Source of the DNA: a plasmid
Reading direction: 5' to 3' (one strand)
Assembly (NCBI RefSeq): GCF_057098645.1
Contig: NZ_JBXSPU010000002.1
DNA: 64,000 nucleotides
How positions within the stretch are numbered: the first letter of the stretch is position 1; each line of letters begins with the position of its first letter. Below are positions 3,001-12,000 of the stretch, piece by piece. Made by a program: the position numbers.

Positions 3001-6000
3001 GGGGGCTCCCTTGTTGCGACGCACATCCAGATATGATGCCCAGACCAGTGCTTTTGGTATTTCAAATGATTTTCGTTGCATCGGTTACGTCATCCCCTTT
3101 TGGGTTGTGTCTTCTGCAATGAATGTGATCCCCATCCCTTCTCTCCAGACCCATTACAGATTTTTCATCACTACTACGAATGAGTCCGCCCCTGTTTCCC
3201 GATACGTGCCGGAAACAGGTTCTCACGTTCCCTGAGATGGTCTGGCTCGGGCTCCTGCTGCCTTCACACCGGATGCTGCGCAGTCAGTAAGCAGGTGACT
3301 TCTGCGCTTGTCAGGGGACGGCTCTACGGCCCCATTTTGACATCATCTAAGATTTCGATGCATCATCGGACAGTTTACTTTCGTTCAGCTTCCCGAACCC
3401 CACGTGACAGTCGATCTCTGCCTTTTCCCGAGTCGCTCACCACCTCATTCCTTAGAATGAAGCAGCACCGGGTCGTTTGGTCAGTGCTCCTGTAAACCCT
3501 GACCGGAGGGCCCACCTCCACCCACCTCAGAGCATGGATAACTTATGCTGCAATTTTCATATTGTTGCCATAATCCAGTCCCATTCACGTTGTGAGAGCT
3601 TCTCAGCACCAACAGAGAGCAGAACTGTATCAATGCTTTTGCGGGTCAACATAAAGGGATGGGGCGTGCGGCAACAACAGGACTAACGGGGCCGGTTTTC
3701 AATTTGCAGCCGCCAGGCTGCCGTGGTTCCTTAGGGCGGTGCCCATATTACGAGATAAGATCAAGCAATGAGTTAAGTTATAACAGGGGCCTGAATATAT
3801 AGGGGGACAATATCTTGAAAAATATCAGTAAAATTTTAAAAAAAACATGCAAGTATTGATTTTTACAGAGTGGCAATAAAAAATTAATAGAAAACAAACG
3901 CGCATGAAGGTGGTTAATGCTTACATCTAAAAAAGAAATGCAGTGTTCTAAAAATAAACAAGAGGATAATTTAACGTTATTGTTAACCAATTACATTTCA
4001 TATCAGAATATAGTTATATTTACGGGGGGAATCAGTTTAAGATAAGAAACAAGAAAGAATTCACCGAATACACAACAGGACCAAAATCATTGTTTTTTTT
4101 GGCAAAAAATACTCGCTGGGACATGGAAGTTGTCGGAATCGATAATAGTAATCCGTACAGGAAAATTATAATTGATGATGCATTAATTAAGTTGCTGCAT
4201 TCAATATCATCTGATGACTCTTGTTATGTAAAAAAAATATATTTACCGCGGACCTTAATGAAACGCAATTGAATATAGTTTACAATATAATTGAAGATAC
4301 AAAACACTCAGGTAACAACAAAAAGCATTTAAGATATTGTATTTATTATCTTTTTTAATAATCATAATGATATAGTTAATGTCATCCTTAGTGCTTCATC
4401 TACGAGCATCGTAGACAGGGTTATAAAAGTAGTTGAGTTGGATATATCCAAAAACTGGAAACTAGGCGATGTCAGTAGTTCAATGTTTATGAGTGACTCT
4501 TGTCTGAGAAAACAATTAAGCAAAGAGAACTTAACCTTTAAAAAAATCATGTTAGATATAAAAATGAAACATGCTTCTTTATTTTTAAGAACTACTGACA
4601 AAAACATAGACGAAATATCTTGCTTGGTTGGTTTTAATTCCACGTCATATTTTATTAAGGTATTTAAGGAATATTACAACACAACACCAAAAAAATATAA
4701 TGGCATTTATTCTATTACACAAAGCACATTGCCATAATTTTTTAGAGATATTTTGAATCTTATTTGCAATGAGCACTCGAAATGAAGAACAATTTGAGAG
4801 AAGAGAAAGAAGTCGTTCTTGATGGATGTATAAATGTATTGTCATTACCTTCAGAATGGAAAGCAATTACACCTAAAAAAATAATGTCACATCGGAGATA
4901 ATAGTGTTTTTCATTCCCCCCAAGGCTTCTTATCACATTATATTAAAATATGATAACACAAAACATTGCGAATTATTTTTTTCAGACCACATCACCGGCG
5001 AACAAGATGTTATATATTCACAAAGTGCTTTTTTCTCACATGTGATTAATCATATAATAGCTTTAGTTGATGTTCTTAATAAGAAAAGTTACGCAAGCAA
5101 TGTTATAAAATTTTTGATAACGATGGAAGGAGGCGGTGATATTCTTTCTGAATCAAAAAGAGCACCATAGTTTATCAAGTAAAAAATGACACATACACTA
5201 CTATAAATAAAGGTAATTATGGAAATAAGAGATAAAAAGGCGAAGTACTTGGAAGAAAAAGGGTTTTATAGACGAGCTGCAGATCGCTGGGCAGAGATAA
5301 TGGTACATTTATCTAGTGACGCTGAGAGAAAATTGGCAGCTCAAAAGTGTGCATTCTGCATTAATAAATCTCTACGTAATAATCTGCAAGCAGATAACTA
5401 TAGCGACATAAAACAAGGAGTTTATAAAGCATATAAGAAAATGGGGCTTGTAAATGAAAAAATATTTAGAAGCTACAAGGAAAATTAAATTATAACGTAG
5501 ATTGAGTCTAAATAACTGTTCGGAATAGTAGATCTCTCAGGGGGATCTCAGTCCGGTTTATGCTAAATAACTGCTCCTAATACCGCTACACTTTAGCCAG
5601 CCCATGTCCCCGACCGGGGAATGGGCTGACGGTATGTGCACCGTAACTGGCGCTGTTCTTCAACTGTGGTGGCTGAAGAACGACTAAGAGGTGAAAGTTC
5701 TCCACACACCCGGTGAGGGGAAGTGTTAGCGGAAGGCAAGGGTGTTCATCGCGAGGTGAAATCTGAAGGAAGCCGGATGCAAAATGCTGGCCTGACGAAC
5801 AGGAAGCGGTTAAGGCGGTGCAGCGGGGTAAGGTGGTATACATCACCAAAGCCTGATACTCACACGGAACGCTGTGACGTAGAGCCGACAGGCATAAGCA
5901 GGAAAGTCGCGCGAATTACCCCGGGAGATCTGCCGTCCTGCCAGTGTGCTACCGGCGTCGTAAGGCGCAGGGATGGGGCGGCAGAAGTCAGCCGACGCCG

Positions 6001-9000: not shown

Positions 9001-12000
9001 TGTTGTTTTAGGCGTTCCGGATGACGGAGCGATGCTGCAGGCACAGATGGTTCTGGATCAGGTGATTTCTTTGGTGACAACTCACTGGCAACAAGACGTA
9101 TCAGAGGTATATGTCTGTACATCATTCGTTCAAGCGCATCGCCAATATTTTTTAGCAGATGCCATCGATCGGCCACCTGTCTGGCCTGAGGTGCACCTTC
9201 ACGTGCTGCTGTCGCATAGACTCCACTGCGATCACGCGAGACAACCTGTATTTCCGGATATTTTCTGAACCAGGCCGCCAGCGTACGCTGATCACGGCCG
9301 GGAAGCAGGACGAGGGGACGGTGAGTATCAAGATTGACGATTAACGTACCGTAACGGTGGCCCCGATGCCACGCCCACTCATCAATACCGACATGAGGCG
9401 CGCCTGACTGTTTCGTCTCCGGGGTATTGATAACCCTGCGAAGGAGAGTATCAGCACTGCAACGGAGACCCACTGCCGTTGCAGCCCGTTTCCCAGCCTC
9501 ACCTCCGGCGATTAATCCCAGTTGACGTTGTAAATTTTGTAACGCCTGTGAAGACTGTTGGTGTGAACCGGCGAAGGGAGCAAGCGACTCGGCAAAAATT
9601 TTACGTGAACAAGCCGGGTTACGGCAGTACCAGTGGCGGACGGAAAATACAAGCCATAGCGTATGTCCTGAGCAGGGTAGATGCTGTATCCGGCGCCGAC
9701 GACAACTATGAACAGAGTCGCTACGCTTAAAGCATTCAGGACATTGTGCTGTTTTGCGTTTTGCGTTTTGCGTTTTGCGTGGAGATGGAGGGTTATACCG
9801 TCAGGGCTAATAATTTGTTGACTGCATCGCCATCCGCAAGGTAACTGTAGAAGTGTCTTAAGAGAGTGCATTGCGTTGCCCATAACTTAAAACAGCTTAG
9901 ATCTTTGTTCACCAGAACGTTTCATCCATTTTCTTCCACCCAAGTTGCGGAAGAACCACTTTCAACAGCGGGTCTGGACAGAAAGCGGCTCTTGATGTGG
10001 ATTATCGCATGGTGTGGGCTTTCAGCGGCATGGTGACTGGAAAGTAACGATATTGCATCTGTGGCAACGAAAATTGCAGAGTTGGTACTCTTTGAACTGC
10101 ATAAGTAAGCAGAAAGGTAAGGTTATGCTTTGCGATTGAAATTCAGCCTTAACGTACAATAATTTTCGATATCCAAACTGCCCCCCTATAACAGCAAAAG
10201 GTCCCACAAGACGCTCGTGGAATATATTTTAAAAGAGAACAAAAATTGCAATATGTGGTGGCTCCATACAGAGGATTGACAACATTCCCATGCTAATTGT
10301 TAAGATTCAAATTGAAGTATATCTATCTGTCATTTTTGCAAATGACATGCGGTAGCATAACGTTCCGGGGCCTCCTGTGCCGTCATGCGTGACGACATTG
10401 ACCAGCCAATAACGGCACGTGACCACAGCCAGATACGGCCAGCCTTCATCCGTACGTAAATATGTGATGACTCCCGCCCACTTCTGGTTCGGGCCACTGG
10501 CGTAAAAATCCTGCTCCAGCAGATTTTCTGACACAGGCTGGCTGTGTGCGCAGTAACAGACCGGACTGAAATTCCAGGAAGCTTTTGCCCTCAGTCCGTG
10601 ACGGCGCAGGCTTTCCGTCACGGTTTTTACTTTAAAATGGTAACCCTGGGTACGCAGTTCATCCATCAGGCGTTGTGCATGACCGGGTAAAAGCAACGAG
10701 GACAACGCTGTCGCAGTGCTGACGGAACTGCCGACGTGTACTTATCCTTATCCGCCACTGATATAAGACGGTAATTCACCATTTGGATTGTCCGCTCCAC
10801 CCAACATGTTGTTTCCTTGAGGTTCTCACACCAGAAAGGACATCAGCATGCTGAGCAGAGAGGACTTTTACATGATAAAGCAAATGCGCCAGCAAGGTGC
10901 GTATATTGTTGATATTGCGACTCAGATTGGTTGCTCTGAACGAACAGTCAGACGTTACCTGAAATACCCGGAACCTCCGGCCAGAAAAACACGCCACAAA
11001 ATGGCCGAAATGGACTATATCGACATGCGTCTGGCTGAGAACGTCTGGAACGGCGAAGTTATCCTGGCGGAAATCAAAGCGATGGGTTATACCGGTGGCC
11101 GTTCCATGTTGCTTCGCCAGTTCAGGAAGACACCGGAGCAGCGCTTCACGCAGGAACACAGTCTGTTCTTCCGGTTGCTGAACCGTCGATATGAAAAAGC
11201 GAGCATCGTGCTGACGTCCAATAAAGGGTTCGCCGACTGGGGGAGAGATGTTCGGTGATAACGTGCTGGCAAAATATTCACCCAACGCATTGAGCGTAAT
11301 AATCTGACGCTACGCACCCGCATTAAGCGGTTGGCTCGTAAAACAATCTGCTTCTCACGCTCAGTTGAGATCCACGAAAAAGTGATCGGAGCGTTTATCG
11401 AAAAACACATGTTCTACTAATTGGATGCACCACCGAATACATTAATTTATATAACAACATCAAAATACATTTTAGGTTGTCGCTAATCAAAAATTATTAA
11501 GTGTTACATAATTAGAGGGTATACATATGATTCATCCTGGATCTTCTTTAGATAAAGCAATTAACAATACAAGAGTTAAAAATGTTAGTACTGATGTTAA
11601 ACATGGCCAAATTCAAGAGAGAAAAAGGAACTTTATCTATAAAAAAAATGATGATATCTCATCCAGATTTAAACTTTACAGTTCGCTCGTAAAGCAGAAA
11701 AATGCGACAGAAGATGTTGTTCTAATAGGCAAAATGATTTTAGATGAAGTCAGAAGTTACAGAACCATACATAATGATCGAAATATCGTAAGTAACTCAG
11801 GAAACTGGAAAACATCTTTTTTATGTAATCTTGCTAGACTACTATATAGCATATTTAATGGTAGTAACTATTTTTGTTCCCGAGAGGGTGAAAATAATTC
11901 ATCCCCCAGTTCTACTCTACTTACTATACATCAGCCTGAAAGGCAGGAACTATTACAACAAAAGAGTATCAAACATTTATCAACTAGTAATAACATCGAC

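Follow-up and report, generated by a model that had tools for sequence, protein, structure and literature searches.

The large virulence plasmid of E. coli O157:H7, pO157, has been described as a mosaic in which insertion sequence (IS) elements lie beside virulence segments (review, PMC2811833). Partial IS elements have likewise been reported beside per, along with EAF-like plasmids that carry inactivating perA frameshifts (PMC4594896). In the EAF plasmids pMAR2/pMAR7 and pB171 of EPEC the per operon is flanked by IS remnants; such remnants also adjoin per in the stretch of an E. coli virulence plasmid analysed here (64,000 nucleotides, hereafter the window). From the perC stop codon (5488) to the toxB start codon (11527) of this window, the gap is filled by compositionally distinct mobile-element remnants, which make up 5508-11434 nearly throughout. 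At 0.45-0.55, this block has a higher GC content than per (0.29-0.31) or toxB (0.27-0.36), a step that delimits it on both sides. We consider the block very probably an inert recombination scar rather than a working system, a mosaic joint on an IncF plasmid between a per module of EAF type, now degenerate, and a toxB module of pO157 type.

Mapping against intact reference copies resolved eight element types and one Tn3-type end. The features are as follows, where L numbers denote comparison sequences and percentages nucleotide identity:

5508-5563, plus strand: left terminus (56 bp, inverted repeat and leader) of IS630-family copy A; L013 2674-2619, 92.9%.
5563-5635, minus strand: right terminus of IS630-family copy B (ISSpu2-like); L015 2001-2073, 91.8%, and L013 1517-1587.
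5636-6111, plus strand: 5' segment of a group II intron (5' GTGCA; domain I to the start of domain IV), from Rfam and alignment to an intact copy.
6105-6990, minus strand: IS66-family (ISCro1-like) piece; L006 4001-4180 (95.6%) and 4255-4966 (91.9%).
6991-7388, plus strand: ORF segment of the group II intron, maturase/X domain only; L007 2803-3200, 99.0%.
7381-7576, minus strand: internal transposase fragment of IS630 copy B, approximately codons 192-257; L015 2283-2476 and L013 1801-1995, both 90%.
7602-8164, minus strand: internal fragment of an IS91-family element (C-terminal half of the transposase); two IS91 copies in L008, 86-87%.
8201-9962, minus strand: near full-length ISEc38 (ISL3 family); L005 4001-5748 (intact copy 4001-5764), 98.4%.
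9963-10375, no strand assigned: left part of the pO157-type block, mainly unannotated DNA; 99.8% identical to O157:H7 pO157 plasmids.
10144-10190, no strand assigned: remnant of a Tn3-family terminal inverted repeat; L011 3501-3547, 95.7%.
10376-10761, minus strand: IS3-like internal transposase fragment, frameshifted; 83.8% to IS3, 386 versus 414 bp.
10759-11272, plus strand: IS21-family (ISEc62-like) remnant in three pieces, inserted in the IS3 fragment; alignment to L009.
11268-11434, plus strand: right end of an IS1-family element (last ~50 insB codons and terminal repeat ...CACC); IS1-family copies, 97-98%.
11435-11526, plus strand: AT-rich spacer of 92 bp that separates the toxB start codon from the IS1 end, with the Shine-Dalgarno sequence GAGGG.

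The remnant block is real and well above chance. Family models were matched for IS66 TnpA and TnpB, the group II maturase, IS630, IS91, ISL3, IS3, IS21 IstA and IstB, and IS1, all of them partially except IS66 TnpA. In an independent plasmid record 99.9% identical to the window, PGAP places 11 transposase or intron features in the block, nine of them pseudogenes. Such a patchwork is ordinary, and its elements are already annotated in public records. The original prediction described this region as a graveyard of nested IS and intron fragments, in agreement with the nesting that we resolved base by base and with the fragmentary state of every element but ISEc38; even ISEc38, the nearest to an intact known element, is not one by alignment. 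The right edge was correctly given as 11434, but the left edge, put at 5581, lies at 5508 (5563 for the lineage-specific part). The element types listed are present as remnants, but three IS630 pieces, from two copies, and the Tn3-family terminal repeat had been overlooked. The IS21 remnant, placed earlier between IS66 and IS91, lies instead between IS3 and IS1, and it is IS630 that adjoins IS91.

The nest is four deep, running from the IS630-A end through IS630-B and a hairpin-targeting group II intron to the IS66-family piece. The IS630-A end also lies downstream of perC in pMAR2, where about 120 bp more of the same IS630 is present; similarity to pMAR2 and typical EAF plasmids reaches window position 5565. 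The IS630-B end, matched as ISSpu2/IS630, is joined to it in the sequence GCTA followed directly by AATAACTG. This junction is consistent with IS630-B sitting at a TA in copy A, the step from GCTA to A being compatible with a TA target. The fragment at 7381-7576 is colinear with the IS630-B end and matches NCBIfam transpos_IS630 over positions 160-221 of 299. Neither copy has a DDE transposase between inverted repeats, A being reduced to its 56-bp end and B to a 73-bp end and a 196-bp internal piece.

A predicted hairpin (~5603-5631) within the right terminus of IS630-B is the site targeted by the group II intron. A hairpin plus xTAT lies directly 5' of the intron GTGCA or GTGCG at five independent sites (the window, L007, L018, L019 and L020), insertion thus falling just 3' of a stem-loop; this preference for terminator-like hairpins we take to be class C behaviour. 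The intron is 98-99% identical to intact copies bearing ltrA. Its 5' segment, the end of which was set by comparing four further insertion sites, contains Rfam matches to group-II-D1D4-3 (5745-5914, 131 bits) and D1D4-1 (5949-6033, 70 bits) and is 97.7% identical to positions 1501-1974 of the intact intron L007. The maturase segment matches Pfam GIIM (8e-22) but covers only positions 237-353 of TIGR04416, scoring 77.6 bits where the cutoff is 300. The 828-bp reverse transcriptase (RT) core is absent, with the IS66 piece in its place, and so are some 200 bp at the 3' side (the end of the ORF and domains V-VI), homology to L007 stopping at 3200 of ~3400. With Rfam, no plus-strand Intron_gpII match (domain V/VI) was found in the window copy, whereas intact L007 has one at 3327-3398. 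Having neither a complete ribozyme (domains I-VI) nor a complete RT/maturase ORF, this intron copy is dead. The junction between intron and IS630-B has AGCGTA in common.

The IS66-family piece retains an intact left terminal repeat (terminal sequence at 6990, ...GCGCTTAC), tnpA (ORF 6239-6937, 232 aa) and a start-less 181-bp fragment of tnpB. It has no tnpC or right end, and hence not the set of tnpA, tnpB and tnpC between two terminal repeats. A 71-bp internal deletion with the direct repeat ATTTCGC on its flanks is located at the tnpA/tnpB overlap, and the tail of tnpA is derived from tnpB. The NCBIfam model IS66_access_TnpA is covered entirely (positions 1-190 of 190, 279 bits) and IS66_TnpB over positions 11-71 of 90. 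The 232-aa protein, interpreted earlier as an IS21 chimera, is a normal long-form TnpA; it is encoded by the sole ORF in the block complete by its own family model and, full length by that measure, could still be expressed. In-frame chimeric ORFs, which had been anticipated, do occur elsewhere: ORF 6914-7435 begins in the IS66 end, crosses the intron maturase and finishes in IS630 DNA, and ORF 10848-11258 fuses the N-terminal part of IstA with a portion of IstB, both model matches lying inside one reading frame.

The IS91 fragment, flanked by 25 bp (7577-7601) and 36 bp (8165-8200) matched to no element, covers positions 167-355 of 356 of transpos_IS91 with 78 bits, under the cutoff of 125; it does not comprise a complete Y2 transposase with both ends. 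ISEc38 covers 1748 of 1764 reference positions. Its left terminal repeat is intact, and the repeat on the transposase-start side, at 9962, is without the outer 16 bp present in L005, L008 and L009. The transposase gene, which had been thought the only potentially intact one in the block, is frameshifted by a four-copy GCAAAAC tract (9751-9780) and stops after 123 codons, so the copy has neither two complete terminal repeats nor an uninterrupted transposase ORF. Compared with the reference, the tract has grown from two imperfect to four perfect heptamers. This is the sole lesion in the gene: once 14 bp are removed or 7 bp added, an ORF of 539 or 546 aa is recovered, and it agrees with the reference at 530 of 539 residues.

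Three-, four- and five-copy alleles of the heptamer occur among plasmids 99.6-99.9% identical, the only in-frame forms being the five-copy allele, present in a sister plasmid, and the ancestral two-copy one. The single lesion could be reversed by one slippage event. These alleles, in a gene otherwise free of lesions, would suit a tract that acts as a functional slipped-strand on/off switch of the transposase. We regard such a role as very unlikely, given that the tract-bearing copy has a truncated terminal repeat and that the data are accounted for by neutral slippage as the gene decays; moreover, 3433 of 3466 E. coli records with the segment stand at 80-90% identity, and the rows sampled span 117 bp, the length of the two-unit form. 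With just 13 records at 90% identity or above, the expansion is confined to this plasmid lineage.

From 9963 rightward the window is colinear with L010 and L006, and 321 pO157 records cover at least 80% of the 9963-10375 query. The IS3 fragment matches transpos_IS3 over positions 153-238 of 369, is a pseudogene in PGAP, and does not hold an orfA-orfB transposase with both inverted repeats. The IS21 remnant aligns to L009 in three pieces, 4847-5218 (90.6%), 5749-5795 (95.7%) and 6633-6756 (95.2%). Its left terminal repeat and first 88 istA codons are intact and are followed by a 47-bp piece of istA and a 124-bp piece of istB; deletions of 530 and 837 bp separate the pieces, and IS1 cuts the element off within istB, leaving it short of complete istA and istB genes between inverted repeats. 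The IS1 identity given above was measured across window positions 11268-11436. Only the last ~165 bp of that element are present (transpos_IS1 positions 174-199 of 199), not insA/insB with both inverted repeats. Its end at 11434 is exactly 92 bp from the toxB start codon, in agreement with the ~90 bp estimated originally.

The complete patchwork was found only in nine PLSDB records and six RefSeq genomes. The portion 9963-11526 occurs in ~320 pO157 records at 99% identity or more, and 5508-9962 is restricted to a small plasmid lineage. Misassembly is common in IS-rich regions, but the probability that repeat collapse produced this arrangement is negligible: besides its presence in PLSDB, six complete genomes, each assembled independently and originating from swine, dogs or humans in two countries, share these 6.2 kb in colinear form with 99.6-99.9% identity.

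For a scar of this kind we infer an order of events in which elements inserted serially into older elements and deletions followed. IS630-B would have inserted at a TA of the older IS630-A remnant downstream of perC, the group II intron would have retrohomed beside the hairpin in the IS630-B end, and the IS66-family element would then have entered the intron ORF. A deletion at GGCCAG microhomology may have removed IS66 tnpC, part of tnpB and the right end together with the intron RT core. Another, at AGCGTA microhomology, may have taken the intron 3' end and ~210 bp of IS630-B, and a third, between the ATTTCGC repeats, the tnpA/tnpB overlap. The IS91 and ISEc38 pieces come next along the left part, and the right part (9963-11434), the canonical block upstream of toxB in pO157, would have come to adjoin the truncated ISEc38 end. 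The chimeric ORFs are probably by-products.

No element in the block is expected to move on its own, because none keeps both ends and an intact transposase. The region could nevertheless belong to a larger, still-mobile unit carrying toxB, either a composite transposon or one moved by IS91 or ISEc38. Inverted remnants of IS3 and istB bracket toxB in pO157. In the window, an IS91-family transposase that appears intact is encoded immediately 3' of toxB (21153-22352), and a per plasmid has acquired the pO157-type block 9963-20839. Against this, a 71-bp IS630 end is the only fragment of 5401-11600 with another copy in the 64-kb window, each flanking element is represented by an internal fragment or by just one end, one ISEc38 terminal repeat is 16 bp short, and the IS91 fragment and the downstream IS91 are not similar in nucleotide sequence. 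A composite transposon around toxB was rejected specifically, since its flanks are fragmentary and do not provide two copies of the same IS with at least one functional. Continued mobility is thus largely refuted and, in our estimate, highly improbable; the inert scar remains the preferred reading.

The 92-bp spacer is the sole non-IS DNA 5' of toxB; pO157 plasmids conserve it, and a non-O157 toxB plasmid does so less closely. The IS1/toxB junction is fixed in pO157, with 322 records, and recurs in that diverged plasmid with 84% identity. Being ancestral and conserved, this junction leaves toxB at most 92 bp of native 5' sequence. The literature searched yielded no mapped toxB transcription start. 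A consensus promoter scan of 10700-11700 gave two hits (shuffle mean 1.9); none on the plus strand lay upstream of the toxB start codon, the sole plus-strand hit (11503-11531) overlapping that codon. The only plus-strand terminator-like site (10884-10902) has a weak T-run, and no clear intrinsic terminator was found between the toxB-side remnants and toxB. These remnants, which comprise the left end of IS21 with the start of istA, the chimeric ORF and what is left of insB, point in the same direction as toxB with no clear terminator in between, and IS-derived DNA may therefore have a regulatory role.

Transcription of toxB could start in, or read through from, the IS21 and IS1 remnants, or a hybrid promoter could lie at the IS1 end. 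The short spacer, the fixed junction, the shared orientation and the weak terminator speak for this, but the scan hits are at shuffle level and a native promoter that depends on an activator could lie within the conserved, AT-rich spacer, and we consider the idea unlikely. Somewhat more doubtful is its extension to all pO157-type plasmids, where toxB may rely on a hybrid promoter or on read-through from the istA leader, because the IS1 end, conserved across both toxB lineages, limits native DNA to 92 bp. If true, IS debris would long ago have been domesticated into the region that controls a virulence gene.

Beyond bookkeeping the importance of the block is small. It shows how EAF-type per and pO157-type toxB modules joined on one IncF plasmid via dead elements, corrects the notion of an active ISL3 transposase within it, and narrows the toxB promoter search to 92 bp and the co-oriented IS remnants. 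Heptamer slippage offers a useful length marker for typing the small plasmid lineage.

Compared with known systems, the group II intron shares the target preference of hairpin-inserting introns but has lost its RT core, ORF end and domains V/VI. Towards per, window positions 3702-5565 are 94.9% identical to the EAF plasmid pMAR2; the shared stretch takes in perABC and continues for 77 bp past perC, covering the IS630-A end. pMAR2 is without IS630-B, the intron and IS66, by which IS630-A is broken at 5565 in the window; in the window perA has at least four single-base deletions and perB at least one. Towards toxB, positions 9963-11600 are colinear with and 99.0% identical to a pO157 plasmid (pZ1723-1, L010), the two having in common the IS3, IS21 istA, istB and IS1 fragments, the 92-bp spacer and the toxB start. 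Left of 9963 the window carries the truncated ISEc38 end, in place of the CACACCT repeat and TolA-like/nikB region into which pO157 continues. The window copy of toxB differs from that of pO157 in carrying a nonsense codon at 3010, and homology stops 197 bp before the normal stop.

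The sequence between perC and toxB (5508-11434) is a patchwork of remnants of mobile elements that is real and cannot be due to chance. The original prediction had described it as a graveyard of nested fragments, and we mapped the fragment boundaries against intact reference copies from public genomes. That description holds for the most part, apart from four mistakes in the details, and both PGAP and the Pfam/NCBIfam models agree with it. From perC to toxB, PGAP annotates in a near-identical record IS66 tnpB (partial), IS66 tnpA, an ORF with a group II maturase domain, IS630 (partial), a 'transposase' (partial), ISL3 (frameshifted), IS3 (partial and frameshifted), IS21 (partial), an IstB-like ATP-binding fragment and IS1 (partial). 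The Pfam and NCBIfam matches of stop-to-stop translations fall in the same families, all of them partial except IS66 TnpA. The GC content rises from 0.29-0.31 in the per locus to 0.45-0.55 at 5501-11500 and falls to 0.27-0.36 in toxB. The mapped pieces and chimeric ORFs are as follows.

5508-5563, left terminus of the IS630-family copy IS630-A, also found downstream of perC in pMAR2
5563-5635, right terminus of the nested copy IS630-B (ISSpu2-like), beginning at the TA at 5564-5565
5636-6111, group II intron, corresponding to about 1480-1974 of the intact reference (L007)
6105-6990, IS66-family piece, ISCro1-like, between the two intron pieces
6991-7388, group II intron, corresponding to 2803-3200 of L007
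6914-7435, chimeric ORF: IS66 end, intron maturase and IS630
7381-7576, internal piece of IS630-B, colinear with its end at 5563-5635
7424-8206, chimeric ORF: IS91 with a foreign tail
7602-8164, IS91-family fragment, C-terminal half of the transposase
8201-9962, ISEc38 (ISL3 family), 1748 of 1764 reference positions, 98.4% identity
10144-10190, remnant of a Tn3-family terminal repeat
10376-10761, IS3-like fragment
about 10759, insertion point, in the IS3 fragment, of an ISEc62-like IS21-family remnant with its left end intact
10848-11258, chimeric ORF: IstA' joined to 'IstB
11268-11434, IS1-family right end, closing the block shared with pO157

No named element was matched at 7577-7601, at 8165-8200 or over most of 9963-10375. 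Duplicated flanks or a composite-transposon structure were sought by comparing 5401-11600 with the whole window, and the only recurrence was a 71-bp IS630 end at 1644-1714. A permissive Rfam search of 1-13000 returned group II intron pieces only; neither an sRNA nor a riboswitch was matched in the region. Since no element retains both ends and an intact transposase, none should be mobile by itself.

The left part of the patchwork begins with a nest. The IS630-B pieces are colinear around the intron and the IS66 piece lies within the intron, implying the order IS630-A > IS630-B > intron > IS66; in pMAR2, the EPEC EAF plasmid, IS630-A extends further than it does here. The nest would have been trimmed by microhomology deletions: AGCGTA is common to both sides of the junction between the internal IS630-B piece and the intron, GGCCAG to both sides of the IS66/intron junction, and a 71-bp deletion between ATTTCGC repeats took out the stop codon of tnpA and the start codon of tnpB. 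The 5' end of the intron (GTGCA, at 5636) lies right behind a hairpin in the IS630-B end, and Rfam detected its domains I-IV and did not find V/VI. A hairpin and xTAT immediately precede the same intron at four other sites (L007, L018, L019 and L020), irrespective of host gene or strand. As insertion follows the stem-loop and xTAT (5603-5635), the intron lies here in antisense to the IS630 transposase. Insertion 3' of a hairpin is how bacterial class C introns behave.

In the IS66 piece the terminal repeat at 6990 is intact, and tnpA survives together with 181 bp of tnpB. An IS21/IS66 chimera is ruled out for its 232-aa TnpA, as a curated long-form TnpA model matches end to end (1-190 covered, 279 bits); the helix-turn-helix N-terminus is native and no IS21 fusion. 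The in-frame chimeras of the original prediction do stand for the three ORFs listed and for tnpA, which carries a tnpB-derived tail.

The ISL3-like transposase had been singled out as the only potentially intact gene, which is wrong as stated. In the ISEc38 transposase gene the GCAAAAC tract at 9751-9780 (GTTTTGC on the plus strand) has four perfect units versus two imperfect ones in ordinary copies, and the additional 14 bp lead to a stop after 123 codons. Removing these 14 bp in silico gives a 539-aa transposase identical to the reference at 530 of 539 positions, indicating that the tract is the only lesion. Among near-identical plasmids the four-unit allele of the window is frameshifted, L004 has three units (out of frame) and L002 five (in frame), the last encoding 546 aa and annotated as intact; the frame could reopen by a single slippage event. 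Expansion as a general feature of ISEc38 is ruled out by a survey of E. coli genomes, where 3433 of 3466 records with the tract segment lie within 80-90% identity and only 13 reach at least 90% to the four-unit allele. The sampled rows span 117 bp, the two-unit form, and the expansion is therefore a slippage specific to this lineage. The terminal repeat on the transposase-start side is 16 bp short and adjoins pO157-type DNA.

Between 9963 and 11600 the sequence follows that of the O157:H7 plasmid pO157 in the same order at 99.0% identity, and plasmid p12690-1 is also colinear from 9963. The possibility that this breakpoint coincides with an IS3 end in p12690-1 is ruled out, given that both plasmids run on into CACACCT-repeat DNA. 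In the pO157 plasmid pZ1723-1 a tandem array of this heptamer (L010, 5970-6003) lies immediately left of the shared block, and the ISEc38 breakpoint falls exactly at the array end. Within the block, the IS21-family remnant consists of three pieces left after deletions of 530 bp and 837 bp. The segment 10187-10375 matches unannotated O157:H7 chromosomal DNA (87-96%) and short F-plasmid stretches labelled 'integrase core domain-containing protein', and is probably one further transposase remnant.

As originally proposed, an IS1-like end lies about 90 bp before toxB; it closes with ...CACC at exactly 11434, 92 bp ahead of the start codon at 11527. About 320 complete E. coli records carry this junction, with identities of 98-100%. 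A non-O157 toxB plasmid with a different variant of the IS1 remnant still shows it at 84% identity, and the association is therefore older than the separation of the toxB lineages. In a consensus scan of 10700-11700, nothing promoter-like was detected on the plus strand ahead of the toxB start codon; the lone plus-strand match overlaps that codon, the scan totals equal the shuffle expectation, and no match could serve toxB. The IS21 and IS1 remnants run in the same direction as toxB and no convincing terminator was found between them and the gene, so read-through into toxB is possible but unsupported. Our literature search returned no mapped toxB promoter or transcription start, nor a description of the patchwork junction. 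The toxB sequence itself (11527-20839) is colinear without gaps with pO157 toxB (98.9%), is interrupted by a nonsense codon (number 3010 of 3169), and loses homology at 20839, 197 bp short of the normal stop; it is followed at 21153-22352 by an IS91-family transposase that looks intact (399 aa, 310 bits). Just 3' of toxB in pZ1723-1 (L016, 10261-10714) there are an inverted IS3 piece, 98% identical to 10459-10674, and an inverted istB piece, 88% identical to 11165-11272. Inverted remnants thus bracket pO157 toxB, a hint that an old composite structure or an inverted duplication once existed there.

On the other side, the per locus (3917-5488) shows, relative to pMAR2, at least four single-base deletions in perA and at least one in perB, both frameshifted, and an intact perC with five substitutions; most of the locus is a cluster of pseudogenes. 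Another group II intron, unrelated to the first, lies on the minus strand at 1643-3652 (domain V/VI at 1771-1848, D1D4-2 at 3403-3519), in sense orientation within another IS630-type copy with its right end at 1643-1740. TIGR04416 rates its RT/maturase ORF (1855-3081) as full length (377 bits), and PGAP as N-terminally incomplete in a sister plasmid; this intron may be intact.

The window belongs to an E. coli virulence plasmid of the IncF type. Window 5000-12000 is 99.9% identical to pCAU16175_2 (swine, China) and 99.6-99.7% identical to a handful of dog, human and wastewater plasmids. The complete stretch is present in only nine PLSDB records and six complete RefSeq genomes; single pieces match thousands of records, as expected for insertion sequences. 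The patchwork is a decayed mosaic joint, a real but ordinary finding that is already in annotated public records. Its left 4.4 kb mark a small plasmid lineage, and the degenerate per module fits earlier descriptions of EAF-like plasmids whose per genes are inactivated (PMC4594896). Its right 1.5 kb are the long-known block upstream of toxB in pO157, a plasmid whose IS-rich mosaic structure is textbook knowledge (PMC2811833).
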